Shown here one piece after another: positions 13,177 through 33,772 of a DNA stretch of 64,000 nt (its first letter is position 1; every line of letters starts with the position of its first letter). The translations under genes were made by a program, and so were the position numbers. Location of the stretch: NCBI GenBank assembly GCA_040905385.1, contig JBBDRP010000002.1, positions 226,292 through 290,291 of the forward strand, in the 5' to 3' direction. Under the pieces are notes generated by a model. That model saw only the letters and a program-made list of their open reading frames with translations. It had not been told where the DNA came from and made no database searches. Source of the stretch: Minisyncoccota bacterium (GTDB lineage: Bacteria; Patescibacteriota; Minisyncoccia; Phycocordibacterales; SW-6-46-9).

Positions 13177-16100
13177 ATGAGTACGAATTTTATACAATCG
13201 GTGAAAGGCTTTATTAGCGAGAATACGCGTCTGGCGGCGGTATTGTTGGTGGTCTTTTTGGCGCTGGTAACCTTGCTCGTGTTGGGGGTCAGCAGTATTC
13301 AGGCGACCTGGTACAGCGACACGAGTGGCAGCGGAACCTGGGACTATCGTCAGCGGATCATTATCGATAGCGACCAGGTTGACTCGAATCTGCAAGACTT
13401 TCCTGTTTACGTTGATCTTGTTGATCTCGGCAGCCAATTTTTTAGTAACGTCGCGGCCGACGGTGGTGATATTCGCGTGACCAATGCGGTTGGTGAGGAG
13501 CTGCCGCGAGAGGTTGTTTCCGTCGACACCGCCTCCTCGACGGGAGAGCTGCACTTCAAGGCCGATAATCTCTCCAGCACGGCGGACACGACCTTCTATA
13601 TTTATTATGGTAATGCTGATACAGGTAATTACGCCACCAGCAGCACGTACGGTGCCCAGAATGTTTGGACGAATAATGAGGCAGCAGTATGGCACCTTAA
13701 TGAAGATCCCAGCGGTACGGCACCGCAGATACTTGATAGCACCGTAAATAATATTCATGGAACCACTGGTGGCTCGATGACGAGTGCTGATTCTGTTCTT
13801 GGAAGACTTGGCAGGGCGCTTGATTTCGACGGTACTGATGATGATGTAGAAATTCCGGATAACATTTTAATAAACATAGCTGACTCATATGACCAGAAAA
13901 CTCAAACAGTATGGTTCAAGGCTGATGAGGTAACTAGTCGGCAGGTCATCTGGGAGGAAGGTGGTTTTGCAAACGGTATAAATATATATGTAGATAGTGG
14001 TACATTGTACGGCCGAGCCTGGAGTGATAGCGAAAGCTGGTCAAAGGAGCTACAGGTAACAACCAGTGTGGCGGCAGATACGTGGTATCAGGTTTATCTG
14101 GTTCTTGATGCACCGAATGATTCACTTGAAATGTTTGTTAATGGTAGTTCAGTGGGGACGGATAATAAGACAGACGGTAATTTTCATAGTGGTCACGGTA
14201 ACGATATTGGTATTGGTAAAGTACAGGGAGATACGAGAACCCACGTAGGAGATGAAGTAGGTTTAGAATTTAACGGTGTTATTGATGAAGTTAGGCATAT
14301 CAATGAAGATCTGCGTTCTGCCGACTGGATCGCCGCCGAATACACCAACCAAAACGCACCAAATACCTTCTACACCGCTGGCAGCCAGGAAACGCAAAGC
14401 TCATCCAACGTGCCGTTTGGTGACAACCCGGGTGGTGACTTTGCCGACGGGGACTGGGACTTCCGCGAGAAGATTACCATCCACGCTGATCAGGTTGATG
14501 CGAACCTTTCCGACTTTCCGGTGTATGTCGACCTGGCTGATATGAGTGTCAGCTTTTTCGCCAATACATCCGTTAACTGTGGTGATATACGTATGACCAA
14601 TGCTTCCGGTACCGAGCTGGCGCGCGAGGTGGTGGCGTGTGATACGTCAGCCGAGACCGGTGAGCTGCACTTCAAGGCTGACTCACTTTCCAGTACTACG
14701 GACACCGTTTTTTATATTTATTATGATAATCCAGATGCTCATGACTACGTAGTAGATGCCACGTATGGGGCGCAGAATGTCTGGACGAATAACCACGTTG
14801 GTGTGTGGCATCTGAATGAAAGCTCAGGAAACACTCTTGATTCAACATCAAATAATAATGACGCAACAACTAACGGCCCTATACAGGGAGTAGAGGGACA
14901 AGTTGGAGATGCTTACTCTTTTGATGGGGCGGATGACTACGTAGAAATCGATAATTTAATCGACGAAATCCCAAATACGTTTTCTGTCTGGGTAAAAGTA
15001 GCGACTGATGTTGGTGATGGAAGAATAGGAGTCATTGCAGGTAATTATCCTGGTGATGGTTCCGCTATAAATATTGAAGGATATTTCAATGGTGAGGTAA
15101 GGATGTATTGGAATGGCGGACAGGAAAATATAAGATACGAAACGGATATAAGAACTGGCGAATGGGAGCATTTGGTATTTGTGAGAGATGTAGCAGCTGA
15201 TGAGATCAGATTATACCGTAATGGTATTAATATACCGAAGACAAGTGATGCGGGAGATGACGTAACACTAGCAGACAACAATAATAAGTTCAGAATTGGT
15301 TCCGATCATCCGAGCGATAGAGAGCCTTTCGAAGGTGATATAGATAATCTTCATATCTATAACACTGATCTCTCTGAAGAAGAAATCTCCGCTATATACA
15401 ACAACCAGAACTCACCATCCACCTTCTACACCATCTCTGGCGGTGTTTCTGCAGCGCCGGTGCTGCTGACTCCAGAAGACACGTCCACTGAGGTGGTGCG
15501 CAACCCGACTCTGGACTGGGAGCCGGTACAAAACGCTGGTGAGTATCAGGTGCAGGTGTCGCCGACCTCGACCTTCTCATCCATCGTGGTGGATGCAGAT
15601 GTGAGCACCAGCGAGATAACCCTGGGCACGCCGTACCCATCACTGAATGCCAGCACGACCTATCACTGGCGCGTGCGGACGGTGGATGGGCAGGACTTCG
15701 GTACGTGGTCAACTGATTTCGAATTTACGACAGCGGCTGGTCTGGCCGGCAGCGGTACCGAGGCCGATCCGTACCTTGTCAGCACCCCACAGGATCTGGA
15801 TGATGTTCGCAATGATTTGACTGCTTATTACAGGCAGGAAAATGATATTGATCTTACTTTCGATACGCAGGATCCAGCGGGATTATTTTACAATTCAGGT
15901 CAAGGCTGGATTACGATTGATGATTTCGAGGGTGATTATGATCTCAATGGGTATTCTGTCCTGGGAATGTTTCAAGATAGGTCAGGTTTTTATAATCGAG
16001 GACTGTTTAGATTAATCAATGCAGGAACCTTACATGACGGCCACATTGATGGAGATATTACAGGAATTGATTCTAATACAGAGGGTTCAGGTGTTGCAGT

Positions 16101-19100
16101 AGCAACAATTGGTTCAACAGGAGGTGTTCATCGGGTTAAAACAACAGGAAGTGTAGTAGCACAGAGAACAGATTTCTTCGTAACAAATGCTGCTGGTATT
16201 ACAAGTAATAACAATGGAAGCATATCAGATTCTTATAATGAGGCAGTTATTAAACAGGGTCTTGATGAGGGAGAACCTACTAGATATGGTGGAATAGCTG
16301 GACAAAATACCTCAAATATTAATAGGGTTCTGAATACTGGAAATGTTATTGTAACAACAGCAACAAGTGTCGGAGCAGTTCGGGGTTTGGACTCTGCTGG
16401 AGATATATCTAATTCTTTTTATGATCAAGATGTCGTTGATGTCGATGACCCAGAAGCAACCGGATTAACCACTGCTAATGCACAGTCTTTATCAACGTAT
16501 GAAAATGCTGGTTGGGACATTGTCCCGATCGAGCATCACGACGGGCGGAAGTCGACGGCGACCTGGTACATCGACGACGGCAACGACTACCCGCGCCTGT
16601 GGTTCGAGTACGAGGGAGAGGGTTGGTACGACGACGGCTGGAGCCACCGCGAGAAGGTCACGATCAACGCCAGCGAGGTGGATGCGACGCTGGAAGACTT
16701 TCCGGTCTATGTTGACCTGGCTGATTTCGGCGCCACCTTTTTTGCCAATGTTGATGGCGACGGCGGCGACATCCGCGTCACCAAGGCGGACGGTACTACC
16801 GAGCTCCCGCGTGAAGTGGTATCAGTAGATACCGGCGGATCCTCCGGCGAGCTGCACTTCAAGGCCGACCGTCTCTCCAGCACCACCGACACGACCTTCT
16901 ACGTCTATTATGGCAATCCAGATGCGATAGATTATGTGACAGATTATGCGTATGGTGCTGAGAATGTGTGGACAAATGGAACGCAACTGGTATACCACCT
17001 GCAGGATGATCCATCTGGTACCGGTCCGCAGATAAATGACTCAACCAGCGGTGGGTATGATGGTACTGCAAGCTCCATGCAAAGCAGTGACAGTGTTACC
17101 GGAAAGGTTGGAAAAGCTCTAGCTTTTGATGGCACGAAGTATATCGATACGGGTACTGAGTATGTTGGAGATACCGGTTTATTCGCTGATGGTAATGAGA
17201 ATTTCACTGTCAGTATCTGGTCAAAAATTAATTCGGGTGATGAAGGTACCCTGATTGCTCGCGCTGGTGGCTCTTCAGGAAGTAGGACTTTTCAGCTTGT
17301 TTCGTGGCCATCAGGAAATGAAACGCCAGGATATTACCTACGTGGAGAGTTAACTGCAACTAATTTAGGCTTTGATGACGGAACCTGGCACCAGACGACA
17401 CTCGTTTGGAATGGTTCCCAAATGGATTATTATCTGGATGGTGAGTACATGAGTAGCCCGGCAGTTGGTACTGCCGCTGAAGAAATCGGTGAAGCCATCA
17501 TTCTCGGAGCCAGAACTGGTGGTTCTGGTTTTTTGCTCGAAGGTCTTCTTGACGAGCCACGTATCTGGGATCGTGCATTATCTCAGCATGAAGTATCTGC
17601 CGAATACACTAACCAAAATGATCCATCCACCTTTTACACCGTTGCTGGTACCGAGGACGTCATCACCATGGACGGCACCGGTACGGCGGGTAATCCGTAC
17701 CTCATTGAGACGCCACAGGATCTAGATGATGTTCGCAAAGACCTCAATGCCTACTACCAACTGGCCAATGATATCGACCTGACCTTTGATACGCAGAACG
17801 CGGACGGAGATTTCTATAATGGCGGCAGCGGATGGGATCCAATCGCCACGACGAGCGCTAATTCTTTTACTGGTAGCCTTGATTTCGAGGGATATAAAAT
17901 TAGTGGATTAATGATAAATAAGCCATCAGAAAATAATCAATCATTATTTGGCTTCACTGATGGAGTAGAGTTTAACGATGTTTGGATTGAGGCAGATATT
18001 ACAGGACGTTTCAGAGCAACTATACTGACCTCACTTAATACTGGTGTATCAGTTGTTAATGGCATTAAAGCCGAAGGTGTTATAACAGGAGAAGGCAGTT
18101 CAACTGCTGAAATAGGTATAGTTGTAGGGTATCACGAAGGAACTTTCACCGTAAATGATGCCTCTTTTGATGTTCAGATTAATAATCCAAACAATCTTAA
18201 ACGAGTGGGTGGAGCTGTTGGTCACAACTATTTTGCTGGGGATGAGTTTACTGTTAACAGAGGCTTAACGAGAGGGCTATATAACTTCGATACAACAGTT
18301 GATGATACAGATCCTTTTATTGGTAATAGAGGCGCTACGAGTGTTGTTAATGATAGTTTTATTGATAGTGAGACAAGTGGTTTTCCTGCAGTAGATATTG
18401 ATGATAATACTACCTCTCTTACCACTGCCGAGGCGCAGGATATCGATACGTACCTGGATGCTGGCTGGGACATTATTGATATATCTCAGCATGATGGGGA
18501 GCGTGCGACGGCCATCTGGTTTATAGACGACGGTAATGATTACCCGCGCCTATGGTTCGAGCGTGACGGGGTAGAGAGTACGAACTTTGGCGACAGTGCG
18601 GACGGTGACTTTGTCGACACCGACTGGGGCTATCGCGAAAAGATTACCATTAACGCCAGCGAGGTGGATGCAACGTTGACCGATTTTCCGGTCTATATCG
18701 ACCTGGCCGATCTCGATAGTGAGTTTTTCGACAACGTGAAAAGTGATGGTGGTGATATCCGCGTGACGGCTGCTGACGGTACAACCGAGCTGGCGCGCGA
18801 GGTTGTGTCCATAGATACAGCGGCCCAGACGGGTGAGTTACACTTCAAGGCGCCATCACTTTCGGCCTCGACTAATACCGAGTTCTACATCTATTTTGGT
18901 AACTCTAGCGCGGTGGATTACCAGGCCGGGGATACGTACGGACGCAATGCGATGTGGAGCAATGGCTACAAGTCCGTCTACCACATGCAGGAAGATCCGT
19001 CCAGGACGGCACCACAGATAATCGACTCAACCGGTGGTGACAAGGCGACCAGTAGTGGGGCAATGACTATCGATGACAGTGTTTCTGGCCAGCTGGCTGG

Positions 19101-19737
19101 AAATGCCCTTGATTTTGATGGTAGTGATGATCATGTTCATATGCCGGAGCGACACACAGGTGGTGAAAGTGAGGTGACGCTATCGCTGTGGTTGAACCCA
19201 GTTTCCTGCGGATCGTCACAGGCGATTTACGACGAAGCCTGGGATGACGATCCTGATCAACCACGTTACTGGCAATTTGCCATCGATTGTGGCACTTGGT
19301 ATACCCGTGATACTAGCACTGGAAAGACCGGTAGTCGCAATAATGACCTTTCCTTACCAGCCTTGACTAATGGATCCTGGCAGCATCTGACCTTTGCTTA
19401 CAGCGCAGGTAGTGGTTATAAGCGAATCTATCTGGACGGAGCCCAGTCAGCTGAGACAACCAATAGCGTTGATCAGCTTACAAGTGATGAGGCTGGATTC
19501 GACTTCATTGCTCGACCCAATGATGGTAGCTATTTTGATGGCAATATTGATGAGGTTCGGGTAGCAACTGCACAGCGATCACAAAGCTGGATCGCCGCCG
19601 AATACACCAACCAAAACGCTCCATCCACCTTCTACACCGTTGGTGATGCGCAGACCGTGGATGAGAGTGCTGCAGAAGGAAACTCGGCCACAGAAATCCG
19701 CGGCGGCGAGTTCCGCGGCGGCGTAGAGTTCAGATAA
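13177..19737 (+). CDS. Giant (2186 aa) surface protein with N-terminal signal/TM anchor, four DUF2341-like modules each followed by a LamG/concanavalin-like (Laminin_G_3) domain, and an FN3 domain. C-terminus ends in ...IRGGEFRGGVEFR.
   Basis: Repeated W(D/Q)YR(Q/E)KITI...DFPVYVDL..GGDIRVT..G.EL.REVVS.DT...GELHFKAD...FYIYYGN modules (DUF2341-like). VWHLNE...DS..N.N.GT...LDEVRI.N LamG_3 signatures. PTLDWEPVQNAGEYQVQVSPTSTFSS...YHWRVRTVDGQ FN3. Confidence 0.85.
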   Translation: MSTNFIQSVKGFISENTRLAAVLLVVFLALVTLLVLGVSSIQATWYSDTSGSGTWDYRQRIIIDSDQVDSNLQDFPVYVDLVDLGSQFFSNVAADGGDIRVTNAVGEELPREVVSVDTASSTGELHFKADNLSSTADTTFYIYYGNADTGNYATSSTYGAQNVWTNNEAAVWHLNEDPSGTAPQILDSTVNNIHGTTGGSMTSADSVLGRLGRALDFDGTDDDVEIPDNILINIADSYDQKTQTVWFKADEVTSRQVIWEEGGFANGINIYVDSGTLYGRAWSDSESWSKELQVTTSVAADTWYQVYLVLDAPNDSLEMFVNGSSVGTDNKTDGNFHSGHGNDIGIGKVQGDTRTHVGDEVGLEFNGVIDEVRHINEDLRSADWIAAEYTNQNAPNTFYTAGSQETQSSSNVPFGDNPGGDFADGDWDFREKITIHADQVDANLSDFPVYVDLADMSVSFFANTSVNCGDIRMTNASGTELAREVVACDTSAETGELHFKADSLSSTTDTVFYIYYDNPDAHDYVVDATYGAQNVWTNNHVGVWHLNESSGNTLDSTSNNNDATTNGPIQGVEGQVGDAYSFDGADDYVEIDNLIDEIPNTFSVWVKVATDVGDGRIGVIAGNYPGDGSAINIEGYFNGEVRMYWNGGQENIRYETDIRTGEWEHLVFVRDVAADEIRLYRNGINIPKTSDAGDDVTLADNNNKFRIGSDHPSDREPFEGDIDNLHIYNTDLSEEEISAIYNNQNSPSTFYTISGGVSAAPVLLTPEDTSTEVVRNPTLDWEPVQNAGEYQVQVSPTSTFSSIVVDADVSTSEITLGTPYPSLNASTTYHWRVRTVDGQDFGTWSTDFEFTTAAGLAGSGTEADPYLVSTPQDLDDVRNDLTAYYRQENDIDLTFDTQDPAGLFYNSGQGWITIDDFEGDYDLNGYSVLGMFQDRSGFYNRGLFRLINAGTLHDGHIDGDITGIDSNTEGSGVAVATIGSTGGVHRVKTTGSVVAQRTDFFVTNAAGITSNNNGSISDSYNEAVIKQGLDEGEPTRYGGIAGQNTSNINRVLNTGNVIVTTATSVGAVRGLDSAGDISNSFYDQDVVDVDDPEATGLTTANAQSLSTYENAGWDIVPIEHHDGRKSTATWYIDDGNDYPRLWFEYEGEGWYDDGWSHREKVTINASEVDATLEDFPVYVDLADFGATFFANVDGDGGDIRVTKADGTTELPREVVSVDTGGSSGELHFKADRLSSTTDTTFYVYYGNPDAIDYVTDYAYGAENVWTNGTQLVYHLQDDPSGTGPQINDSTSGGYDGTASSMQSSDSVTGKVGKALAFDGTKYIDTGTEYVGDTGLFADGNENFTVSIWSKINSGDEGTLIARAGGSSGSRTFQLVSWPSGNETPGYYLRGELTATNLGFDDGTWHQTTLVWNGSQMDYYLDGEYMSSPAVGTAAEEIGEAIILGARTGGSGFLLEGLLDEPRIWDRALSQHEVSAEYTNQNDPSTFYTVAGTEDVITMDGTGTAGNPYLIETPQDLDDVRKDLNAYYQLANDIDLTFDTQNADGDFYNGGSGWDPIATTSANSFTGSLDFEGYKISGLMINKPSENNQSLFGFTDGVEFNDVWIEADITGRFRATILTSLNTGVSVVNGIKAEGVITGEGSSTAEIGIVVGYHEGTFTVNDASFDVQINNPNNLKRVGGAVGHNYFAGDEFTVNRGLTRGLYNFDTTVDDTDPFIGNRGATSVVNDSFIDSETSGFPAVDIDDNTTSLTTAEAQDIDTYLDAGWDIIDISQHDGERATAIWFIDDGNDYPRLWFERDGVESTNFGDSADGDFVDTDWGYREKITINASEVDATLTDFPVYIDLADLDSEFFDNVKSDGGDIRVTAADGTTELAREVVSIDTAAQTGELHFKAPSLSASTNTEFYIYFGNSSAVDYQAGDTYGRNAMWSNGYKSVYHMQEDPSRTAPQIIDSTGGDKATSSGAMTIDDSVSGQLAGNALDFDGSDDHVHMPERHTGGESEVTLSLWLNPVSCGSSQAIYDEAWDDDPDQPRYWQFAIDCGTWYTRDTSTGKTGSRNNDLSLPALTNGSWQHLTFAYSAGSGYKRIYLDGAQSAETTNSVDQLTSDEAGFDFIARPNDGSYFDGNIDEVRVATAQRSQSWIAAEYTNQNAPSTFYTVGDAQTVDESAAEGNSATEIRGGEFRGGVEFR

Positions 19738-19768
19738 AACCCTCACCCAACCACCACCTCTACGTCTC

Positions 19769-19791
19769 GTAAGGATAACATCCTTGCAGAC
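19769..19791. repeat. REP-like hairpin copy 1 (GTAAGGATAACATCCTTGCAGAC) upstream of the HUH transposase
   Basis: Core palindrome AAGGAT-AAC-ATCCTT. The same 23-mer recurs at 20658-20680 and, with a perfect 12-bp stem, at 20531-20560. Confidence 0.8.
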
Positions 19792-19822
19792 ACTATAAGA
19801 TAAGCCTTAAATTCAACATTCT

Positions 19823-20503
19823 ATGCTTTTACACATTATAAAACGAGGAGGACGCGGCCTGCCGATTGTTGCGGATGACGATGATCGCTGGCGATATCTG
19901 AAATGTCTGTATTATCTAAATGATAAAAATCATCCGATAGGTTGGGAGCGTGATGTTGAAGCGCTTGGTTCTGGACTGCACTTTCAACGCCCGGAATCGT
20001 GGGGTGGTGAGCGCGATCCGTACGTCGATATCCTGTCGTACTGTCTGATGGATAATCATTACCATCTATTCGTTTCCGAGCGCGATGAGGGCATGATGGC
20101 GGCTTTTACGAGGTCGCTAAATAAAAGCATGTCGCAGGCCTATAATGAAAAGCAAGACACAAGCGGAAGTATCTTTCAAGGCCCGCCCAAGAAAAAGTTT
20201 GTTGAGGATGACGCCTACCTGAAATTCCTGTACGTCTATGTCAACGTCAAGAATCCCTTCGAGCGGTATCAGGGCGGCATTCGGAAGGCGATCGAGAATT
20301 TTGATGACGCCTGGGAGTTTGCGCTCGAATACGATTTCTCTAGCTTACCAGATTGTGCGGGTGACCGGGCGTCACCCATCGTGTCGCTGGATATATTTCG
20401 GGATGCATTTTCAAGCTCCGCCGAGTTCAAAGAGTTCGCCCGCGAGCAGATGCATCGGTACGGGCAGTTTCTGGAAGATGTCGATGCGGATGACTTAGAG
20501 TAG
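19823..20503 (+). CDS. tnpA: IS200/IS605-family / REP-associated (RAYT-like) HUH tyrosine transposase (Y1_Tnp)
   Basis: HuH motif MDNHYHLFV (nt ~20055-20080) and catalytic-Tyr region LYVYVNVKNPFE (compare E. coli RayT YIYINPVKHG). At 226 aa it is slightly longer than typical TnpA. Flanked by directly oriented REP-like hairpins. Confidence 0.7.
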   Translation: MLLHIIKRGGRGLPIVADDDDRWRYLKCLYYLNDKNHPIGWERDVEALGSGLHFQRPESWGGERDPYVDILSYCLMDNHYHLFVSERDEGMMAAFTRSLNKSMSQAYNEKQDTSGSIFQGPPKKKFVEDDAYLKFLYVYVNVKNPFERYQGGIRKAIENFDDAWEFALEYDFSSLPDCAGDRASPIVSLDIFRDAFSSSAEFKEFAREQMHRYGQFLEDVDADDLE

Positions 20504-20530
20504 AGAAAAGGACAGAGAGGGAGTGTCTCG

Positions 20531-20560
20531 GTGTCTGTAAGGATAACATCCTTACAGACT
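20531..20560. repeat. REP-like hairpin copy 2 with a perfect 12-bp stem, GTCTGTAAGGAT-AAC-ATCCTTACAGAC
   Basis: Read directly. 28 bp downstream of the transposase stop codon. Confidence 0.85.
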
Positions 20561-20655
20561 GAGGTTAGTAGAAATTCACAGGAATAGATGTCGAAAGTCG
20601 AGAATGTGGGTTAAAATGAAGGCTAAGTACGCGGTGGTTGCCCGGGGTCTAGGGT

Positions 20656-20683
20656 CTTGTAAGGATAACATCCTTGCAGACGA
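20656..20683. repeat. REP-like hairpin copy 3 (TTGTAAGGATAACATCCTTGCAGACGAG), same orientation as copies 1 and 2
   Basis: Near-identical to copy 1 including 4 flanking bases. 45 bp upstream of giant gene 3. Confidence 0.8.
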
Positions 20684-20727
20684 GGAAAAGGATGATGAGG
20701 GTGGGGAGGTGACGGGAAATTACGCTA

Positions 20728-23700
20728 GTGATGATTTTAGAATTTTATAAAAAAGTTAAGGAGTTTATCGGGCGGCATCCGCGGATGGTGGCGGTGGTGG
20801 GGGTGACGGTCGCGGTGCTCGTGATACTGGGAAGTGTTGGCACGCAGGCGGCGTGGTACTCATCAACCGGCGACGGCCCGACCTGGCAGTACCGCCAGAA
20901 GATTACCATCGATGCCGACCAGGTAGATGCCGAGCTGACCGACTTTCCCGTCTACGTTGATTTATCAGATTTTGGTAGTGATTTTTTTAGTAATGTCGCG
21001 GCAGATGGTGGGGATATTCGCATCACTACCGCCGATGGCACCACCGAGCTGGCGCGTGAGGTCGTCTCGGTAGACACGGCTTCATCAACCGGGGAGCTAC
21101 ACTTCAAGGCTGATAGCCTTAGCGCCTCAAGCGACAGCGAGTTTTTTATATACTACGGCAGTAGCGGCGCAAGTGATTATGCTGTTACGGATACGTACGG
21201 CCGCAATGCGGTGTGGAGTGATTATCGTTTTGTATCACATGACGCTGGTTACACTGACTCTAGTGGCGCTCTTGCTCAAGGAACTTTGTTTAATGGTATA
21301 ACGCCAAATGATTCAGCGGGAATAATTGGAAAAGCAACGCTTTTTGACAAACCTTCACAGCAGTATGTTCAACTTGGTGACACAATCATACCTCCAAGCA
21401 GTGATTTTACGTTTGATGTTTGGGCTGAGCAGTTTGATTTTACAGGAACTACTGTATCAGATGAATCATTAATACTTACTCAAAATGATTCTGGAAGCAC
21501 AAATGCTACTTTTGTGCACGGTTCTAATGCAAGACAAAACCATATTACTGGTCTGTGGGATATTAATAATAGCAGAACTCTAGAAGGTCCTGATATAAGA
21601 GGAAATGGCTGGGTAAAATTACAGATAAGAAGAGATGGTAATGAATTTAATTTATTCCATAACAATGTCCTTCAGGATGCGACCACCACAGCCATCACAA
21701 TTCCTGATGCAGCAAACGCTTATTTGGGTGCGTATGAAAATAATGGACCAGAAAGATTTTTCACAGGTTTAATTTCAGAAGTTAGATCTGCATATACTGC
21801 TCGGTCTGATGATTGGATTGCTACTGAGTACACCAATCAAAATAATACAACTGATTTCTATACCATCGGCGCTCAGGACACCCAGCCGGATTCGAACGTC
21901 GCTTTTGGGGCGAATTCGTACGGCGACTTTGCGGATACTCGCTGGAGCCACCGTGAGAAGATCACGATTGACGCCGCCCAGGTCGATGCGGATCTAGCCG
22001 ACTTTCCGGTCTATGTAGACCTGGCCGACCTATCGACAACATTTTTCCAAAATACCAACGTAACCTGTGGCGACATCCGTGTCACGGCCGGCGACGGCCT
22101 GACCGAGCTGGCTCGCGAGGTGGTGGCGTGTGATACGGCCTCATCCACTGGTGAGCTTCACTTCAAGGCCGACAGCTTATCGGCTTCTTCAGACACCGAG
22201 TTCTACATCTACTACGGCAACAACTCAGCCAATAACTACATCCATGATGAGCAGTTTGGGCGAGATAATGTGTGGTCGGATGGGTATGCTGGTGTATGGC
22301 ATCTAAGCGAAGGTTCAGGTGAGGCCCGTGACTCAACAGCTAACAGCAGTAACGGTACAAATAATGGTGCCACTCAGGGCGTAGTCGGGCAGGTAGGTGG
22401 CGGGTATGATTTCGATGGTACGGATGATTATGTAAAGATTACAGAAAATTTCGTCTCTTCTCCAAGTGAGCTGACTATTTCTGCCTGGTTTAAGAAGGAA
22501 AGTGGCGGTGATGTGTATGAGACTGTTTTACATAAGGGTTCAGCCGATACTGTCGGCAGTAGTGATTACTGGCTAGGAGTAAGTGGTGACGATAACTTAA
22601 CCGCCACTATTGGTGCCAATACTGGCGTTGGATGGGATGCTGGTGAAACTACTACTTCAGTAAATCTCGGACAATGGTATCACATGGCTGCTACCTGGGA
22701 CGGGTCTGTTGTTGAGGTTTATCTAGATGGTCAATTTAATAAGCAGTACAGTCTGAGTTCTTACGGTGATCTGAACACGGACACCAGATTCGGTTCATCT
22801 GCAGACGGTACAAATTATCAGTTTAGAGGTACTGCCAGTGAGATTAGGATTTATAACAAAAGTATTTCCGGTGACGAGATCTCCGCAACTTACCGCAACC
22901 AGAACTCACCAACCACTTTCTACACCGTCGGGGTGAATGAAGCTTCGGCCGGGCTGTTTGGTGATAACCCGTCCGGTGACTTTGCCGACGCCGACTGGGG
23001 GTATCGCGAGAAGATCACGATTGACGCCGATCAGGTCGGTGCAACTCTGACTGACTTTCCGGTCTACGTCGACCTTTCCAACTTGTCCGCAACCTTTTTT
23101 GATAATGTCACCGCCAGTGGTGGCGACATCCGTGTGACCGCCGGCGACGGCACTACCCAGCTGGCGCGGGAAGTTGTCTCGGTCAATACAGCCTCCTCGA
23201 CCGGTGAGCTGCATTTTAAGGCTGACTCAATATCGAGCACGACCGACACCAGCTTCTACATCTACTACGGTAATCCGAATGCTGATGATTATGCGGTAGG
23301 TGATACCTACGGCGCCGAGAATGTGTGGTCGAATGAGACACTAGCAGCATTCCACCTTGAGGAAAATGCTGTGAATAGTTCCGATGATAATTTCAATGGA
23401 ACAATAAACGGAAGTCCTGCCTGGGTGACTGGTGTTATTTACAGTGCTTTGGACTTCTTGGGTACTAATGGTAATAATGTCGAAATATCGAGTGCATTGC
23501 AATCAGACATTACAAATAATTCTTACACGGTTAAAGCATGGATAAATCCAAGATTAACTGGTTCTAGTAATCAAGCAATTATAGATACAGGTAGTGAAGG
23601 AGATGGTCAGATGCGCTTCTTTATGAATGACACAGATGGGTCGTTCAAGATACAAAACACAGCCAGTTTTACTGGCACAGGAGTAAGGTCTTCAGCTGGG

Positions 23701-26700
23701 ATCTTAACCGCGGATATATGGAATCAGGTTGTAGCGGTTGTAAATGGTACTAGCGCAATTTTGTATCATAACGGTCAGGAGATAACTTCAGGAACAATCG
23801 ATGCATATACAGGTAATGGCAATAATATTGCTTTTGGTGATAAACCACTAAGTTCAGGGTCTAGCATGAATGCTCTTAATGGGTCTCTGGATGAAGTTTA
23901 TATTTACAATAGTTTATTGTCTACTGACTGGATTGCCGCCGAGTACACTAACCAGTCTACCACTACTGACTTCTACACCGTCGGTAGCCTGGAAGAGCCG
24001 AGCACCGTCTTTGGCGACGATACCGATGGTGACTTTGCTGACACCGACTGGACGTATCGCGAGAAGATCACCATCAACGCCGACCAGGTGGAGGAGACGC
24101 TGACCGACTTCCCGGTCTATGTTGATCTGTCTGATTTCGGATCACAGTTTTTCAACAATGTCCGCAGTGATGGTGGTGATATTCGCATCACCGCCAGCGA
24201 CGGCACGACCGAGCTGGCGAGGGAAGTCGTCTCTGTGGACACTGCCTCATCGACCGGGGAAATCCATTTCAAGGCCGACGAGATCGACGCCGAGGCCGAT
24301 ACCGACTTTTACATTTACTATGGCAATACCGCCGCGGTCGACTACGTCGTTACGGATACGTACGGCCGTAACGCGGTGTGGAGTAACGGCTATGCTGGAG
24401 TTTGGCACACAGGCGAAGACTCTGCTACACAAACGTTTGATTCTACTGGTAACAATAATACGGGAAACTTTCAGGATAACTTACCAACCACGCAGTCTGG
24501 AAAGATTGGAGATACGCAAGATTTTGATGGCACTAGTGATTATATTGATGCGGGTACTGACTCTAGCCTAGACATCACAACTGAAATCACGGTCGGTGTC
24601 TGGGTGAATCCTGATAATACTGGTGGTGACTATACAGGAATAGTAAATAAAAGCAGAGCAGATACGGCTGGTTTCTGGATGGGGTATTCAGCGAACGGTG
24701 ATATAGTTAGATGGGAGACTAATGATGCAGGAGGAAGTTGGCATGAAGTTGATATGCCTTTAATAGATGCCGAAGTAGGAGAATGGAATCACTTCGTAGG
24801 TGTTTATGATGGTAGTGAGCTTATAGGTTATAAAAATGGTTCTCAATCAGGAACTCCTGATAGTTTTACTGGAGAATTTGAAACTACAACTAATTCCCTA
24901 AAGTTTGGAGATTTTGAGGTTGCGGATAGATGGTTTGATGGCATGCTTGATGAGATTCGTATCTCCAGTGCTGCGCGCTCTGCCGACTGGATCGCCACCG
25001 AATACAACAACCAAAATGCTCCTAGTAGCTTCTACACCATCTCTGGCAGCCCTTCCGAAGCGCCGGTGCTGCTGACTCCGGAAGATACGGCCACCGAGGT
25101 GAGCCGGGCGCCGACGCTGGACTGGCAACCGGTCCAATCAGCTACCGAGTACCAGGTGCAGGTGTCGCCAACCTCGACCTTCTCATCTATCACGGTGGAT
25201 GCGAACGCAACCGACAGCGAGATAGCTCTGGGCACGCCGTATCCGTCATTGGATGCCAGCACAACCTATCACTGGCGCGTACGCACGGTGGATGGGCAGA
25301 GCTTCGGCGCCTGGTCCACCGACTTTTCCTTTACGACAGCTGCTGGTCTGGCCGGCAGCGGTACCGAGGCCGATCCGTACCTCATCAGTACTCCACAAGA
25401 CCTGGATGACATTCGCAATGACCTGGATGCCTACTACCGACTTACGCAGGATATTGATCTGACCTTTGATACACGGGATCCAAATGGAGATTTTTATAAT
25501 GCTGGTGATGGTTGGCAGGAAATAGATAACTTTGATGGTGAATTCGATATGGGTGGATATAGTATTATCGGAGCCCGAATTTTTAATGGATTTTTTGATA
25601 ACATTGGATCAAATGGGCTTATACATTCAGGAAAATTTGCCGATTGCGAAGTTCATGGAGGATATGATCAAGGAGTTATTAACGAAACAGGAGGGGCAGG
25701 ATTAATTAAAGAAGTTGTAGTAGATAATTGTTCTGTGGCGTCGGGCAATACTACAAGCCGTAGAATTGGTGGATTTAGCGGTAGAGGAATCTCTTCTCAG
25801 GATGTTATTTCACGTAATCTTGTGCTCGGTGGAGAAGGTGATAAGGGTGCAAACACTGGACGAGTTTTTGATACCAAGGTGTACACACGAAACCTCATTC
25901 ACAATGTGAGTTGGGAGGGTGTAAGTGGTCAAACTGAAAATCCTCTTTTTGGGTGGATTCAATCTGGTGGAAATCCGACGGTAAATGATGTGTTTTTTGA
26001 TGATGATACGCTTGATTATGCCGGAACTCGAACTGACCAAGGTACCGGGCTAACTACCACCGAGGCGCAGGATATTACTACGTATGAAAATGCTGGGTGG
26101 GACATCGTTCCGATTGCTCAGCACGACGGGCAGCGGTCAACAGCAATTTGGTACATCGATGATGGCAATGATTATCCACGTCTGTGGTTCGAGTACGAGG
26201 GTGAGGGCTGGAAAGATGGCTGGAGCCACCGTGAGAAGGTCACGATCAAGTCATCGGCGGTGGATGCGACGCTGGAAGACTTTCCGGTCTATGTCGACCT
26301 AGCTGATTTCGGCGCCACGTTCTTTAATAACGTCCGTACTGATGGTGGCGATATTCGTGTCACCAAGGCGGACGGTACTACCGAGCTGGCCCGGGAGGTT
26401 GTCTCGGTAGATACCGCCTCCTCGACCGGTGAGTTACACTTCAAGGCCGACCGCCTCGCCAGCACCACCGACACAACCTTCTACGTTTATTATGGTAATC
26501 CAGATGCGTCCGAGTACGCGACTGATTATGCGTATGGTCGCAATGTTGTCTGGAGCGATTATGAAAACGTCTACCACCTCGACGAGCAAGGAGACGGTAC
26601 CACCGGAGAGCATATCGACTCAGCCGGTAACCACGACCTGACGGCTGGATACTTTTCTGCTGGTATTCCGAATCGAGTTGATGGAAACCTCGGGTACGCG

Positions 26701-29700
26701 CAGCAGTTTAACGGAACTGATACATCAATTGGTGGTGTATTTAATCTGAGTGCTAAGGATGAAATGGTCGTGTCGGTATGGGCGCAACCAACGGCCAGCG
26801 GGCAGTCCAGCCGGTCGGGAATATTTGGATACAGTGAATATAACGTTAGTTCAGCCTATCGATTGGGTGGATTTAGATTTACAAGCAGTGATTTAGGTGG
26901 GCTTGATATCTATCTAGATGATGGAAGTGCCGAGTGGTTTAACTCCACACTGACACTGAATCTCAACCAATGGAATTACATGGTGGGTAGATTTGAATCA
27001 GGGGTTACAAAAGATATTCTTATCAATGACCAGTGGGATGAACGTACTGCACCGACAGGCAGTTTGGCAGCGGGGACCTCAAGCATAGCACTTGGTGAAG
27101 TGCAGGAAGATCCTGTGAACCGCCGATTTCAGGGGCTCATTTCCGAGGCTCGCTACAGCACCGTAAAGAGGAGCCAGGAATTTTATGCCGCTGAGTATAC
27201 GAACCAATCGACCACCACCGATTTCTATACGGTCGATACGACACCAATCCAGATTGACAGCATCGAGGATTTGGATGATGTACGCAACGACCTATCAGCC
27301 AGTTATGAGTTGACGCGCAACCTGGATTTCGACGACTGCGCCTCTTATGACACCTGTGCCAATATGGACACCTACACAACCGGCAGTGGGTGGGACCCAA
27401 TTGGCACGAGTGGCGACCCTTTTACAGGTCAATTTGATTTCAAAGGACACTCAATTACCGGATTAATGATAAATAGATCTAGCACCGACTATCAAGGACT
27501 TTTCGGGGCCTTGGGACTTGATGGTTATATTCATAGCGGTTCAATTATTAATGCAGATGTTATCGGTGAGAAACGTACTGCAGTACTTGTTGGTTTCATG
27601 GATGGAAATGCACTTGTCGAACATATTTCTATTAGGAATAGTACTGTTGGAGGGTCGTACAGTGGTAACAAGGGACTGTTAGTTGGATGGTTAAATAGCA
27701 CTACTTCTCTGATAAGAGATTCTTATGCTCAAGGGCAAGCAATTGTAGGTAATTATAGTGCTGCAGCTGGAGAAATACATCCTGTTGATGCTCAGTTTCC
27801 TTCTGAAAATCTTTACTTTGTCGGAACTCTTGATTATGGTGCCAGTAGCCCTGTTGGAGGTATTGATGCGGCAGATAATGCTTTAAATAGTTTTTATGAT
27901 CAGGATGTTGCAGGAGAAATTTTTGGAGCAGATCCAGGAAATGCAACAACAACGGTCATAATGCAGGACATTGATACGTATATTAATGCTGGCTGGGACA
28001 TCGTCCCGATCGAAGAGCATGACGGGCAGGAGTCGACGGCGACCTGGTTTATTGATGATGGTAATGACTATCCGAAGCTGTGGTTTGAACGCGAGGGGGC
28101 CCAAAGCACAGCGTTTGGCGACGACCCCGACGGCGACTTTGCCGACACCGACTGGAGCCACCGCGAGAAGATCACCATCAACCCCGACAAGGTGCCGACG
28201 GTTACAAGTAGCGTTAATTCGCGCGTCACGCAATCCAGTGATGATGCTGAGGAAAAGCTTTCCGATAATAGTATGCTTATCTCAAGTTCTGATCTTGAAC
28301 TTATCGCTGATGGCACGTCGCCTGGCGGCGATCAAGAGATCGGACTGCGTTTCCAGAACATTACTATTCCCCAGGGTGCCGTGATCACCAACGCCTACAT
28401 CGAGTTCCAGACCGACGAGACCAACAGCACTACCACCAACCTAACCTTCCGCGCGGAGGATAATAACGATACGACGACCTTTACTACCGGTAGTGGTGAC
28501 ATTACCAACCGATCCAAGACAGCCGCCTCGGTTGATTGGAACAACGTGCCGGCCTGGAATACGATTAGCGAAAAGCATCAGACCCCGGATCTGTCGGCGG
28601 TGGTGCAGGAGGTGGTTGATCGCGCCGGCTGGCAGAGTGGTAACGCGATGGCGATGTTTGTCACTGGTGACGGAACCCGGATTGCCGAGGCATATGATGG
28701 CGAGGCGGCCAATGCACCGCTGCTGCATATCGAGTACGAATCTCCAGCGGCAACCTTGACGGATTTTCCAGTTTATGTTGATCTGGCCGATCTGTCGGAT
28801 ACGTTTTTCGTCTACGTAGCAAATGACGGGGCGGACATCCGCGTGACGGCCGGTGACGGGCTGACCGAGCTTCCGCGGGAAGTCGTGTCTGTGGATAGCG
28901 TCGGGAAGACGGGTGAGCTGCACTTCAAGGCCGATGCAGTATACGGGTCGGTCGGGACTGAGTTCTACATCTACTACGGTAATCCGTTTGCTGTGAATTA
29001 TTCAGCCACGGATACGTATGGTGCTCAGAATGTGTGGAATAGTAATTATGTGTTGGTTAGCCATGATGGAGGTGCCACAGATTCAACAAGCAATGGAAAT
29101 AATGGAACTGCTAATGGTGATGCTACTGCAGGGATAGCTACTGGTAAAGTTGGTACTGCTGCAGAATTTGATGGAGTTAGTGATTCATTCCAGATAGCAG
29201 ACGACGCTTCGCTTGATACACCCTCCGCAATCACTATTACAGCTTGGGTAAATGCGAACTCATTCAAGTCTGACTTCAGCGAAATTGTTAGTAAGAAGTT
29301 TGATACTGGTTATGATTTCTTGGTCGACAATGATGCTGGCACAAACGATTTGGAATTCATAAGTTTTGATGCAGATATTCTTCAGTATTCCAACGATAAC
29401 GTGGTTGCCACTAGTACTTGGTCTCATGTGGCTGTTACATATGATAAATCAAATGTAAATTTTTATGCGGATGGCTCGTATGAAGGAGGCGGTGCAGAGA
29501 CGGCAGATATTGGTACGAATAATGAGGATCTGTATATCGGTAGCGATGCAGGTAATAGCTGGGAGTGGAATGGACTTATTGATGAAGTCAGGATACTCTC
29601 TAGTTCTCAATCTGCTGACTGGATTACAGTCGAGTATAATAACCAGTCGTCTCCATCCACCTTCTACTCTGTAGGTACGCAGGAGATTAGCGGCGAAGAC

Positions 29701-30423
29701 ACGATACCGCCGTATCCAGATCCGAGCGAGTTTGCCGTGGCACCAGATGGGGCCAGCACGTCGTCGATCACGATGACGGCTGCCACCTCTACGGACGGCG
29801 AGGGATCAACCCCGGTCGAGTACTACTTCAACTACCAGGCGTGTGCTGCCGATGCCGGCACCGGCTGGAGTCACTCTGGTTGGTTGGTGGAGACGTCGTA
29901 TACCGACGAGAATCTCCAGGTTAACCAGTGCTACAGCTACCGCGTAAAGACCCGGGATAGCCTGGGTAACGAGACGGCGTACTCGGCAACATCCAGTGCC
30001 TACACCGCCGCCGCAATTCCGGACGCGCCGTCACTTTCCAACCCGACGGAGACGACGCTGGACTTGGTGAACAATGAAGGTGCCAACCCAACCGCTAATC
30101 CCGACACCACCTTTGCGGTACAAGTCAGCGATACCTCACCAGGAGACCAGACCTGGACAAACCAGTACGTCAACGCCAGTGGTGAGCCGTCAGCCACCGC
30201 CGTCTGGCTGACAGACAGCCAGCTGAGCGGCTTGACGGTTACCATGCTGGAGCCGAACATCACCTACACCTTCCGCACCAAGGCTCGCAATGAAGACGGT
30301 GACGAGACCGGCTGGTCGGCGACAACCGTGGCCTCGACCTCGTCTGACTACCCAGATGAGACGGACACCTCAACCCGTCTGCGCGGCGGCTCGACCATCC
30401 GCGGTGGCAGCACAGCGCAGTAA
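20728..30423 (+). CDS. Giant (3231 aa) surface protein, paralogous to gene 2. Has an N-terminal TM anchor, at least seven DUF2341-like modules interleaved with LamG_3 domains, two FN3 domains and a distinct insert domain (nt ~28225-28745). C-terminus ends in ...LRGGSTIRGGSTAQ.
   Basis: Same module signatures as 13177-19737. Long near-identical stretches shared with gene 2 (e.g. AAGLAGSGTEADPYL.STPQDLDD.RNDL; TTAEAQDI.TY.NAGWDIVPI..HDG..STA.WYIDDGNDYP.LWFE). Terminal FN3: YYFNYQACAADAGTGWSHSGWL...YSYRVKTRDSLGNET. Confidence 0.85.
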   Translation: MMILEFYKKVKEFIGRHPRMVAVVGVTVAVLVILGSVGTQAAWYSSTGDGPTWQYRQKITIDADQVDAELTDFPVYVDLSDFGSDFFSNVAADGGDIRITTADGTTELAREVVSVDTASSTGELHFKADSLSASSDSEFFIYYGSSGASDYAVTDTYGRNAVWSDYRFVSHDAGYTDSSGALAQGTLFNGITPNDSAGIIGKATLFDKPSQQYVQLGDTIIPPSSDFTFDVWAEQFDFTGTTVSDESLILTQNDSGSTNATFVHGSNARQNHITGLWDINNSRTLEGPDIRGNGWVKLQIRRDGNEFNLFHNNVLQDATTTAITIPDAANAYLGAYENNGPERFFTGLISEVRSAYTARSDDWIATEYTNQNNTTDFYTIGAQDTQPDSNVAFGANSYGDFADTRWSHREKITIDAAQVDADLADFPVYVDLADLSTTFFQNTNVTCGDIRVTAGDGLTELAREVVACDTASSTGELHFKADSLSASSDTEFYIYYGNNSANNYIHDEQFGRDNVWSDGYAGVWHLSEGSGEARDSTANSSNGTNNGATQGVVGQVGGGYDFDGTDDYVKITENFVSSPSELTISAWFKKESGGDVYETVLHKGSADTVGSSDYWLGVSGDDNLTATIGANTGVGWDAGETTTSVNLGQWYHMAATWDGSVVEVYLDGQFNKQYSLSSYGDLNTDTRFGSSADGTNYQFRGTASEIRIYNKSISGDEISATYRNQNSPTTFYTVGVNEASAGLFGDNPSGDFADADWGYREKITIDADQVGATLTDFPVYVDLSNLSATFFDNVTASGGDIRVTAGDGTTQLAREVVSVNTASSTGELHFKADSISSTTDTSFYIYYGNPNADDYAVGDTYGAENVWSNETLAAFHLEENAVNSSDDNFNGTINGSPAWVTGVIYSALDFLGTNGNNVEISSALQSDITNNSYTVKAWINPRLTGSSNQAIIDTGSEGDGQMRFFMNDTDGSFKIQNTASFTGTGVRSSAGILTADIWNQVVAVVNGTSAILYHNGQEITSGTIDAYTGNGNNIAFGDKPLSSGSSMNALNGSLDEVYIYNSLLSTDWIAAEYTNQSTTTDFYTVGSLEEPSTVFGDDTDGDFADTDWTYREKITINADQVEETLTDFPVYVDLSDFGSQFFNNVRSDGGDIRITASDGTTELAREVVSVDTASSTGEIHFKADEIDAEADTDFYIYYGNTAAVDYVVTDTYGRNAVWSNGYAGVWHTGEDSATQTFDSTGNNNTGNFQDNLPTTQSGKIGDTQDFDGTSDYIDAGTDSSLDITTEITVGVWVNPDNTGGDYTGIVNKSRADTAGFWMGYSANGDIVRWETNDAGGSWHEVDMPLIDAEVGEWNHFVGVYDGSELIGYKNGSQSGTPDSFTGEFETTTNSLKFGDFEVADRWFDGMLDEIRISSAARSADWIATEYNNQNAPSSFYTISGSPSEAPVLLTPEDTATEVSRAPTLDWQPVQSATEYQVQVSPTSTFSSITVDANATDSEIALGTPYPSLDASTTYHWRVRTVDGQSFGAWSTDFSFTTAAGLAGSGTEADPYLISTPQDLDDIRNDLDAYYRLTQDIDLTFDTRDPNGDFYNAGDGWQEIDNFDGEFDMGGYSIIGARIFNGFFDNIGSNGLIHSGKFADCEVHGGYDQGVINETGGAGLIKEVVVDNCSVASGNTTSRRIGGFSGRGISSQDVISRNLVLGGEGDKGANTGRVFDTKVYTRNLIHNVSWEGVSGQTENPLFGWIQSGGNPTVNDVFFDDDTLDYAGTRTDQGTGLTTTEAQDITTYENAGWDIVPIAQHDGQRSTAIWYIDDGNDYPRLWFEYEGEGWKDGWSHREKVTIKSSAVDATLEDFPVYVDLADFGATFFNNVRTDGGDIRVTKADGTTELAREVVSVDTASSTGELHFKADRLASTTDTTFYVYYGNPDASEYATDYAYGRNVVWSDYENVYHLDEQGDGTTGEHIDSAGNHDLTAGYFSAGIPNRVDGNLGYAQQFNGTDTSIGGVFNLSAKDEMVVSVWAQPTASGQSSRSGIFGYSEYNVSSAYRLGGFRFTSSDLGGLDIYLDDGSAEWFNSTLTLNLNQWNYMVGRFESGVTKDILINDQWDERTAPTGSLAAGTSSIALGEVQEDPVNRRFQGLISEARYSTVKRSQEFYAAEYTNQSTTTDFYTVDTTPIQIDSIEDLDDVRNDLSASYELTRNLDFDDCASYDTCANMDTYTTGSGWDPIGTSGDPFTGQFDFKGHSITGLMINRSSTDYQGLFGALGLDGYIHSGSIINADVIGEKRTAVLVGFMDGNALVEHISIRNSTVGGSYSGNKGLLVGWLNSTTSLIRDSYAQGQAIVGNYSAAAGEIHPVDAQFPSENLYFVGTLDYGASSPVGGIDAADNALNSFYDQDVAGEIFGADPGNATTTVIMQDIDTYINAGWDIVPIEEHDGQESTATWFIDDGNDYPKLWFEREGAQSTAFGDDPDGDFADTDWSHREKITINPDKVPTVTSSVNSRVTQSSDDAEEKLSDNSMLISSSDLELIADGTSPGGDQEIGLRFQNITIPQGAVITNAYIEFQTDETNSTTTNLTFRAEDNNDTTTFTTGSGDITNRSKTAASVDWNNVPAWNTISEKHQTPDLSAVVQEVVDRAGWQSGNAMAMFVTGDGTRIAEAYDGEAANAPLLHIEYESPAATLTDFPVYVDLADLSDTFFVYVANDGADIRVTAGDGLTELPREVVSVDSVGKTGELHFKADAVYGSVGTEFYIYYGNPFAVNYSATDTYGAQNVWNSNYVLVSHDGGATDSTSNGNNGTANGDATAGIATGKVGTAAEFDGVSDSFQIADDASLDTPSAITITAWVNANSFKSDFSEIVSKKFDTGYDFLVDNDAGTNDLEFISFDADILQYSNDNVVATSTWSHVAVTYDKSNVNFYADGSYEGGGAETADIGTNNEDLYIGSDAGNSWEWNGLIDEVRILSSSQSADWITVEYNNQSSPSTFYSVGTQEISGEDTIPPYPDPSEFAVAPDGASTSSITMTAATSTDGEGSTPVEYYFNYQACAADAGTGWSHSGWLVETSYTDENLQVNQCYSYRVKTRDSLGNETAYSATSSAYTAAAIPDAPSLSNPTETTLDLVNNEGANPTANPDTTFAVQVSDTSPGDQTWTNQYVNASGEPSATAVWLTDSQLSGLTVTMLEPNITYTFRTKARNEDGDETGWSATTVASTSSDYPDETDTSTRLRGGSTIRGGSTAQ

Positions 30424-32254: not shown

Positions 32255-32287
32255 AGATTCGTAATTTTTAGCTCTTAGCTCATACCT

Positions 32288-32310
32288 TTCAGAACATGGA
32301 ATGTTCTGAA
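32288..32310. repeat. Palindromic hairpin TTCAGAACAT-GGA-ATGTTCTGAA between the GT4 and GH57 genes. Same core as 35761-35779.
   Basis: 10-bp stem read directly, followed by AAAAA. The second copy CAGAACAT-GAA-ATGTTCTG lies between the GH15 and MFS genes. Confidence 0.7.
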
Positions 32311-33769: not shown

Positions 33770-33772
33770 AAT

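Follow-up and report, generated by a model that had tools for sequence, protein, structure and literature searches.

We examined a 64,000-nucleotide stretch of DNA, hereafter the window, from a Minisyncoccota bacterium (positions 226,292 to 290,291 of contig JBBDRP010000002.1, assembly GCA_040905385.1), and concentrated on two of its genes, gene 2 and gene 3, which encode giant proteins built from repeated DUF2341-LamG cassettes. The window appears to be a segment of Patescibacteria chromosome that carries genes for GatB, GroEL, LepA, RNase J, MurJ, ribonucleotide reductase, and glycogen metabolism, and its proteins are markedly acidic. Both giant proteins are already in GenBank, on a 784-kb contig in the record of a metagenome-assembled genome (MAG), as "DUF2341 domain-containing protein" of "Candidatus Paceibacterota bacterium." The two genes, which are paralogues, lie as follows:

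13177-19737, + strand: gene 2, 2186 amino acids from an ATG start (GenBank MEX2514737.1)
13177-13305, + strand: Sec-type signal of gene 2, with a basic n-region and a 20-residue hydrophobic stretch, ending IQA/T right before "WY"
20728-30423, + strand: gene 3, 3231 amino acids from GTG (GenBank MEX2514740.1)

Gene 3 may start at GTG 20728 or at ATG 20731; the public record uses ATG 20731, which gives 3230 amino acids. From its N terminus, protein 2 consists of a signal peptide, two cassettes, an FN3 domain, a GLUG-type module, a third cassette, a second GLUG-type module, a fourth cassette, an acidic linker, and a tail with a twin RGG motif. Protein 3 runs from signal peptide through four cassettes, FN3, GLUG-type module, cassette, and GLUG-type module to a cassette with a nested insert resembling a carbohydrate-binding module (CBM), then two FN3 domains, a linker, and an RGG tail. 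Gene 3 therefore has the common core of gene 2 plus two extra N-terminal cassettes, the insert, and two extra FN3 domains ahead of the tail. By composition count, Asp and Glu make up 15-16% of both proteins and Lys and Arg about 5%. The longest exact DNA repeat common to genes 2 and 3 is 41 nucleotides, so the array is old and diverged; a recent duplication or amplification, or an assembly artefact, is ruled out by this maximum.

The Sec-type signal of protein 3 ends TQA/A, right before the "WY" that opens the first DUF2341 domain. In secreted homologues, too, an A-x-A signal end is followed directly by WY, and phage-encoded homologues begin MAWY. From these sequences we infer that the signal peptide would be cleaved just ahead of the first "WY" in both proteins.

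Gene 2 has four cassettes and gene 3 has six, each a DUF2341 domain followed by a LamG domain:

13339-14379, + strand: gene 2 cassette 1
14455-15435, + strand: gene 2 cassette 2
16639-17643, + strand: gene 2 cassette 3
18625-19641, + strand: gene 2 cassette 4, the one modelled with AlphaFold2
20884-21867, 21943-22929, 22996-23982, 24049-25041, + strand: gene 3 cassettes 1-4
26221-27234, + strand: gene 3 cassette 5
28153-29673, + strand: gene 3 cassette 6, with its DUF2341 domain split by the insert between the REKITIN and LTDFPVYVDL strands

A motif map places the cassette starts at amino acids 55, 427, 1155, and 1817 of protein 2 and 53, 406, 757, 1108, 1832, and 2476 of protein 3, and neighbouring cassettes are spaced 351-372 amino acids apart. 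In Pfam, Laminin_G_3 (PF13385) matches four stretches of protein 2 (E 3e-69, 232 bits) and six of protein 3 (E 1e-95, 318 bits), and DUF2341 (PF10102) matches four stretches of protein 2 (E 1e-23, 83.9 bits) and five of protein 3 (E 7e-37, 126.3 bits), the sixth copy being missed because the insert splits it. The gathering cut-offs are 27.6 bits for Laminin_G_3, 23.4 bits for DUF2341, and 25 bits for fn3. A preliminary description of this DNA had proposed both family assignments and a repeat of about 350 amino acids; the scores, far above the cut-offs, and the regular spacing bear this out, and the motifs and both twin-RGG tails that it quoted are present exactly as given. It missed the four GLUG-type modules and the contrast between conserved DUF2341 and variable LamG domains. 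When hidden Markov models built from the proteins' own copies were searched against all six frames of the window, they found exactly 10 DUF2341 domains, 4 GLUG-type modules, and 1 insert module, all within genes 2 and 3.

Whole cassettes are 33-45% identical in pairwise comparison. Across nine aligned cassettes, the DUF2341 halves have a mean identity of 66% (range 58-84%), whereas the LamG halves average 28% (range 20-35%) and keep the framework residues alone. The AlphaFold2 model of gene 2 cassette 4 with the tail, made from an 85-sequence alignment, has a predicted local distance difference test (pLDDT) score of 87.6 and a predicted template modelling (pTM) score of 0.88. Its Foldseek matches in the Protein Data Bank (PDB) are lectins or CBMs of the LamG type, i.e., domain 4 of AbnA, the lectin domain of trans-sialidase, the Hc-N domains of tetanus and botulinum neurotoxins, and a cyanophage tailspike; against AbnA domain 4 (5hon) the template modelling (TM) score is 0.77, normalised to the target. 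The predicted concanavalin-like jelly-roll fold, together with the Pfam score, places these domains within Laminin_G_3. The likeness to the solved Laminin_G_3 lectins is one of fold, at 10-18% sequence identity, and unlike those modules, the LamG domains here are always fused behind a DUF2341 domain. PHROGs contains no match for the cassette or for the insert.

Between and behind the cassettes lie the FN3 domains and the GLUG-type modules:

15436-15732, + strand: gene 2 FN3-like domain, a sub-cut-off fn3 match, colinear with the FN3 domain of gene 3 in the alignment of the two genes
15724-16650, + strand: gene 2 GLUG-type module 1
17650-18603, + strand: gene 2 GLUG-type module 2
25042-25338, + strand: gene 3 FN3 domain (Pfam fn3)
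25330-26232, + strand: gene 3 GLUG-type module 1
27235-28131, + strand: gene 3 GLUG-type module 2
29674-30342, + strand: two FN3-like domains of gene 3

FN3 domains are present, as had been proposed: fn3 (PF00041) scores 31.7 bits in protein 3, above the cut-off, and 26.8 bits in its C-terminal piece, and it falls below the cut-off in protein 2 (17.6 bits). The four GLUG-type modules, two per protein and ~300 amino acids each, amount to ~1200 amino acids in all. They start ...G(S/T)GT..PYLI.TPQDLDD(V/I)R.DL and finish DDGNDYP(R/K)LWFE. None of the window copies has a Pfam match at E <= 1, the Glug model (PF07581) included, and a profile of the four copies has no meaningful match among PDB sequences. 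The same profile finds 29,877 cluster representatives at E <= 1e-3, in most cases large proteins with several copies each, and sampled matches carry the Pfam GLUG motif, hence the name we use, and Peptidase_M26_N (PF05342). The latter Pfam name comes from the N-terminal region of IgA1-specific metallopeptidases. The modules are thus linked through the profile to large surface proteins with GLUG motifs (PF07581, some with PF05342), but the window copies lie below the short Glug model.

The insert in gene 3 is a domain within a domain:

28213-28755, + strand: nested insert of 181 residues (amino acids 2496-2676), a DNRLRE/CBM96-like beta-jelly-roll in a loop of the sixth DUF2341 domain

The best database matches to the C-terminal third of protein 3 cover this stretch alone (44-57% identity, ~24% coverage), and the matching proteins also carry metallophosphoesterase, PKD, deacetylase, and other domains. 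The preliminary description had called the insert (nt ~28225-28745) unique. Its location is close to the one given here and the module is single in the window, but the family is widespread: an iterative search found 285 copies in 105 of the retrieved proteins, typically 2-4 each and usually in tandem, with conserved ends ...SSDDAEE... and ...AESY.G....APLLHIEY. The AlphaFold2 model of the insert has a pLDDT of 95.7. Its top Foldseek match is a chondroitin-sulfate-binding CBM (8wab, E 3e-6, TM 0.64) and the second an alginate-binding CBM (7vbo, E 5e-5, TM 0.56), followed by a next best at E 1.7e-3; the fold is shared with these solved members at a sequence identity of 12-17%. At the sequence level, the window copy does not match the NCBIfam DNRLRE (NF033679) or Pfam CBM96 (PF24517) models and has no meaningful match among PDB sequences. 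Its family has no Pfam model, and the DNRLRE model covers it in part, matching 11 of 45 aligned relatives (best E 3e-7). The insert is therefore DNRLRE/CBM96-like at the level of fold and lies outside current sequence models. It differs from the two solved CBMs in being nested within another domain, not appended to an enzyme, and from its own family, with its usual 2-4 tandem copies, in being single. Syntenic orthologues of gene 3 lack the insert, which makes it a lineage-specific domain insertion.

These orthologues come from two related loci, which also show how the arrays change. In one (L073), the genes that come after a gene 3 orthologue are those of the window, for GT, GH57, GH15, MFS, RNase J, and SBP; the other (L097) has a partial gene 2 orthologue, an open reading frame (ORF) of 226 amino acids, a gene 3 orthologue, and the same downstream genes. 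A segment-wise comparison of protein 3 with its orthologue P0401 gives the following identities:

DUF2341 domains: 67-80%
First FN3: 68%
GLUG-type module 1: 70%
Terminal FN3 pair: 79%
LamG 2: 77%
LamG 1, 3, 4, 5, and 6: 24-29%
GLUG-type module 2: 31%

Two of the divergent LamG domains of P0401 have close relatives elsewhere in the window. The fifth LamG of P0401 matches the sixth LamG of window gene 3 at 76%, and its sixth matches the fourth LamG of window gene 2 at 69%. LamG types have thus shifted in position or between paralogues on a conserved scaffold, which indicates that whole LamG modules are replaced and moved. Judged from these sequences, replacement of LamG domains on a constant scaffold would be the pattern expected of receptor-binding modules under diversifying pressure.

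The small ORF between genes 2 and 3 occupies the same position in the window and in L097:

19823-20503 in the window and 3086-3766 in L097, + strand: 226-amino-acid ORF

It partially matches the IS200/IS605 Y1 transposase family (PF01797) at 20.6 bits (E 5e-4), below the 23-bit cut-off, and has no NCBIfam or PHROG match. The two copies are 84% identical and, since the position is kept at this level of identity, the ORF looks like a fixed part of the locus, not a recent insertion. We also considered whether REP-like hairpins (repetitive extragenic palindromes), possible substrates of a Y1-like enzyme, mark the borders of the LamG modules, and we reject this: there are four short inverted repeats in 17.6 kb, none at a module boundary.

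The cassette is found well beyond these three genomes. With gene 2 as a single protein query, a scan of contigs found no relatives, but with the cassette alignment as query it found 70 loci in GTDB species genomes, overwhelmingly Patescibacteria, i.e., Saccharibacteria, Paceibacteria, and Kaiser-, Nomura-, Gracili-, Dojka-, and Moranii-bacteria, including MAGs from hypersaline sites and soda lakes. The proteins at these loci reach >6900 amino acids and up to 7 DUF2341 domains. Single-cassette versions without a signal peptide occur on 23 viral contigs (L074-L096, IMG/VR), and many proteins of ~360 amino acids on contigs of 41-45 kb are of the same stand-alone kind; they start MAWY. On one viral contig, the cassette gene lies between a major head gene and head-tail adaptor and minor tail genes, and on another it is beside tail-fibre-like genes. 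The presence of the cassette in phage structural modules fits a role in receptor recognition, and the stand-alone phage proteins are probably virion receptor-binding or decoration proteins. These phage proteins end in hydrophobic strands (...PAIFFGMNF, ...TFTPRTVMVL) or in tandem repeats of 10-11 residues (...SIKTINGLAKASVKTVNGLA...).

The window proteins end differently, in a basic tail behind a linker, and related tails close nine other DUF2341-LamG proteins:

19642-19689, + strand: acidic linker of gene 2
19690-19734, + strand: gene 2 tail, TEIRGGEFRGGVEFR
30343-30372, + strand: acidic linker of gene 3
30373-30420, + strand: gene 3 tail, TRLRGGSTIRGGSTAQ
P0141 C terminus: ...EIRGGEIRGGVEFR
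P0067 C terminus: ...TRIRGGSTIQGGSTIR
P0217 C terminus: LRIGGGTRLTGGVRLF
P0157 C terminus: LRLKGGIRLKGHVRLF
P0229 C terminus: LRLHGHIRLLGNVRLQ
P0197 C terminus: IRLQGVRLRGVRLR
P0198 C terminus: VRINNGSLRINNGTVRIK; P0208 differs at two of these residues
P0010 C terminus: IRLQGGTKLNSGVILQ

The tail consists of two to three tandem units of 5-6 residues, each containing a hydrophobic and a basic residue as well as a Gly-rich turn, i.e., (phi-R-x-G-G)2-3. The domain before it may be a LamG domain, an FN3-like domain, or a beta-helix-like domain ending "AWDIGADEY." A permissive tail pattern, run against 6130 stop-terminated ORFs from the window and 73 loci, matches genes 2 and 3, two orthologous or related DUF2341 proteins, and three shadow-frame ORFs only. 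The tail-bearing proteins were gathered by DUF2341 similarity, so the sample is biased towards that family. Other endings recur among the DUF2341 ORFs of the GTDB loci (e.g., ...IQVRVYHQATGGGGGGGGAI). The gene 3 tail is identical in L073: the final 25 residues agree at 24 positions, 14 of which have synonymously different codons (e.g., CTG/TTA, CGC/AGA). In L097, the last 22 residues of the gene 2 product, in its tail and linker, are all unchanged, next to a LamG domain that is 27% identical. That the residues are kept despite synonymous changes indicates purifying selection at the protein level. The preliminary description had taken the tail for a possible signal shared by the two proteins, an idea to be given up if all homologues lacked it; the tail is a real shared feature and recurs unchanged in syntenic orthologues, so that ground for giving it up does not apply.

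What might such proteins do? Attachment to other microbes is the way of life of Patescibacteria, and little is known of how they recognise their hosts. From the analyses above, we think it moderately likely that genes 2 and 3 encode Sec-secreted, multivalent glycan-binding adhesins of an episymbiotic Paceibacterota bacterium, with exchangeable LamG modules that set specificity. The scaffold would be formed by the Ig-like DUF2341 domain that opens every cassette, the FN3 spacers, and the two GLUG-type modules, and it would display a row of highly divergent LamG jelly-rolls, four in protein 2 and six in protein 3, to which protein 3 would add the carbohydrate-binding-type module nested in a DUF2341 loop. 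With the signal peptide removed just ahead of the first "WY," the protein would extend from the cell as an elongated molecule. Several low-affinity sites of different kinds could then attach it to polysaccharides on the surface of a host or partner cell, with avidity proposed to supply the binding strength. Over evolutionary time, exchange or relocation of whole LamG modules on this constant scaffold could re-tune specificity. The tail, on its flexible acidic linker, would most likely form a short strand-turn unit for docking to a partner, in surface retention or assembly, or else mark a module boundary or processing point.

Earlier work lends this reading some context. A role in adhesion or host interaction has been proposed for the giant DUF2341 proteins of Patescibacteria (PMC11809585), a Saccharibacterium cannot grow epibiotically without glycan-binding surface proteins (PMC10633639), and binding of the Saccharibacteria strain TM7x is governed by lectin-like pilus proteins and host cell-wall glycans (PMC11623550). 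The giants of Patescibacterium danicum come from the same phylum-level group as the window proteins, with multi-copy DUF2341, lengths of thousands of residues, and the same proposed role in adhesion (PMC11809585). That report counts domains only and describes neither a regular DUF2341-LamG cassette nor GLUG-type modules, nor does it mention a nested CBM-like insert or an RGG tail, and the window proteins differ in having no FhaB-type regions. The kind of protein is therefore already recognised, and the sequence comparisons here would add points that are modestly new, namely the conserved (phi-R-x-G-G)n element, the nested DNRLRE/CBM96-like module, and LamG swapping.

Several observations weigh against this reading. 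All functional statements rest on resemblance of fold or family, and folds of the LamG and CBM-like types are also found in protein-protein binding or in a purely structural role. No cell-surface anchor is identified in proteins 2 and 3: no hydrophobic anchor follows the motif, and the last 30 residues of both are polar or Gly-rich, so the proteins might simply be released. The tail has a pLDDT of 56-68 in the AlphaFold2 model, with no secondary structure, and is predicted to be disordered. It is found in 0 of the 47 C-terminally complete DUF2341 ORFs from the 70 GTDB loci. In addition, the motif can be internal: among the 11 members of the 90%-identity cluster of gene 3 orthologues, 6 end ...RGGSTAQ* and 5 run on ...RGGS-GISGSIPE... 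into an Ig-like domain of ~125 residues. The multivalent carbohydrate binding suggested in the preliminary description is thus plausible at the level of fold, where the modelled LamG domain resembles lectins and CBMs and the insert two CBMs, and the function itself stays conjectural. If the proteins are lectin arrays, the constant scaffold and variable LamG domains would offer a handle on host range, by relating LamG type to host, and the conserved tail would be a candidate means of retaining or processing these proteins on the cell surface. At present, the locus mostly confirms and refines existing domain annotation.

The tail also invites a second explanation, first raised in the preliminary description: could it be a genuine signal for sorting, anchoring, or processing at the C terminus, one that a dedicated machine recognises and whose cleavage could release whatever follows? 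The tail sits at or near the C terminus past a flexible linker, whatever domain comes before, and orthologues keep it in full although synonymous change is saturated. It also forms a basic patch in proteins that are otherwise rich in acidic and poor in basic residues. The Ig-like polymorphism (~13100-13525 in L097), which sets P0401, P0398, P0396, P0391, and P0395 against P0249, P0397, P0392, P0394, P0399, and P0400, has its DNA breakpoint immediately past the second RGG, which fits a processing site. In having a short conserved C-terminal element that is independent of the preceding domain, the proteins resemble those with LPXTG/sortase, PEP-, PGF-, and GlyGly-CTERM signals and the C-terminal domain of type IX secretion. 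The RGG tail differs from all of these: it has no following hydrophobic helix, basic stop-transfer tail, or ~80-residue sorting domain, and it is sometimes internal. No transmembrane segment or other known CTERM or sortase feature lies past the tail, neither the window nor the syntenic loci contain a candidate processing enzyme linked to it, and its specificity for the family is not established by a sample collected through DUF2341 similarity. We therefore regard a dedicated signal as unlikely. As a strict C-terminal sorting signal, the tail is unproven because most Patescibacteria homologues lack it, its model is disordered, and an Ig-like domain follows it in 5 of 11 orthologues. The element is nevertheless conserved and functional, and may serve for docking, as a point of processing, or as a boundary between modules. 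It is tempting to go further and see in (phi-R-x-G-G)2-3 an undescribed terminal docking or processing peptide that tethers DUF2341-LamG lectins to the surface of Patescibacteria and, with LamG swapping, gives them a phage-like, exchangeable host recognition; we offer this as a speculation that is quite unlikely to hold in full.

Adhesion through long surface proteins also brings pili to mind. Proteins 2 and 3 could be accessory or tip components of a filament resembling a type IV pilus, with the tail as a strand that docks to pilins. The COG label of MJ1470/DUF2341 reads as a predicted component of a system that resembles type IV pili, DUF2341 proteins occur in archaeal type IV pilus loci and have been compared with PilY1 (PMC4858521), and one homologue is annotated at source as MshQ. 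There is also a weak NCBIfam match to TafC (NF052521), the proposed tip protein of haloarchaeal Tat-fimbriae (PMC12337348), and the likeness is that of a LamG-like domain on a secreted halophile protein proposed as the terminal part of an adhesive filament (PMC11821415, PMC12337348). This match scores 82.4 bits against a cut-off of 410 and covers profile positions 187-362 only, the LamG part; with Sec instead of Tat signals and no taf genes nearby, the window proteins are not members of that family. Neither the 64-kb window nor the syntenic loci contain pilus genes, and the N termini are not prepilin-like. A class III prepilin signal has Gly at -1, followed directly by a hydrophobic helix with Glu at +5; we reject such a signal in gene 2, where KG/FISENTR is polar with Glu at +4, and in gene 3, where KE/FIGRHPR has no Gly. 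We consider a pilus component very unlikely.

Could the proteins instead be mainly enzymes that degrade polysaccharides or cell walls, with catalytic beta-helices in the GLUG-type modules and the LamG and CBM-type domains for targeting? LamG_3 and CBM-type modules are usually seen together with glycan-active enzymes, relatives of the insert are found in metallophosphoesterase, deacetylase, and PKD proteins, and homologues of the GLUG-type modules match Peptidase_M26_N. However, Pfam and NCBIfam place no catalytic family in either protein, the GLUG-type module has no solved relative by sequence and no known activity, and lectin-type modules outnumber every other module, all of which makes this account highly improbable. 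That the genes are prophage tail-fibre genes, not cellular adhesins, is scarcely credible: the cassette does occur on the 23 viral contigs and in phage structural modules, and the upstream gene 1 has a chaperone domain of tail-fibre type, but genes 2 and 3 encode Sec signal peptides where phage versions start MAWY, their flanks are housekeeping genes with the same order in two related genomes, and the window has no capsid, terminase, or integrase genes.

The remaining features of the locus lie around the adhesin candidates:

2138-13117, + strand: gene 1, the upstream giant, 3659 amino acids
30421-30455, + strand: terminator-like inverted repeat, perfect over 15 nucleotides and with a T run behind it, which overlaps the gene 3 stop codon
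30482-30886, + strand: 134-amino-acid ORF directly past gene 3
31034-35758, + strand: GT4/GT5 glycosyltransferase, GH57, and GH15 glucoamylase-like genes

The glycosyltransferase, GH57, and GH15 genes belong to glycogen-type metabolism and lie past the giant genes in all three related genomes; they have no evident functional link to the giant proteins. We read the 134-amino-acid ORF, from its sequence, as a four-helix-bundle protein of the 23S rRNA intervening-sequence type. In the two related loci, a gene matching Pfam 23S_rRNA_IVP lies past the GH15 gene instead (9706-9993 in L073, 18414-18758 in L097), and the shifted position would be a small local rearrangement if the window ORF is typed correctly. 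The product of gene 1 has long fibre-like repeats (...FFWDD.N.RLGIGT...) and no RGG tail; its domains are a weak, sub-threshold N-terminal HTH_17, a Peptidase_S74 chaperone of the phage tail-fibre type (amino acids 3166-3223), and a terminal Ig-like domain. In another genome (L071, GCA_964539575.1), an ORF at 2-2029 that has the FFWDD..N.RLGIGT motif lies ahead of P0067, a DUF2341 protein with an RGG tail. This suggests that the pairing of a gene 1-like ORF with such a protein is conserved.

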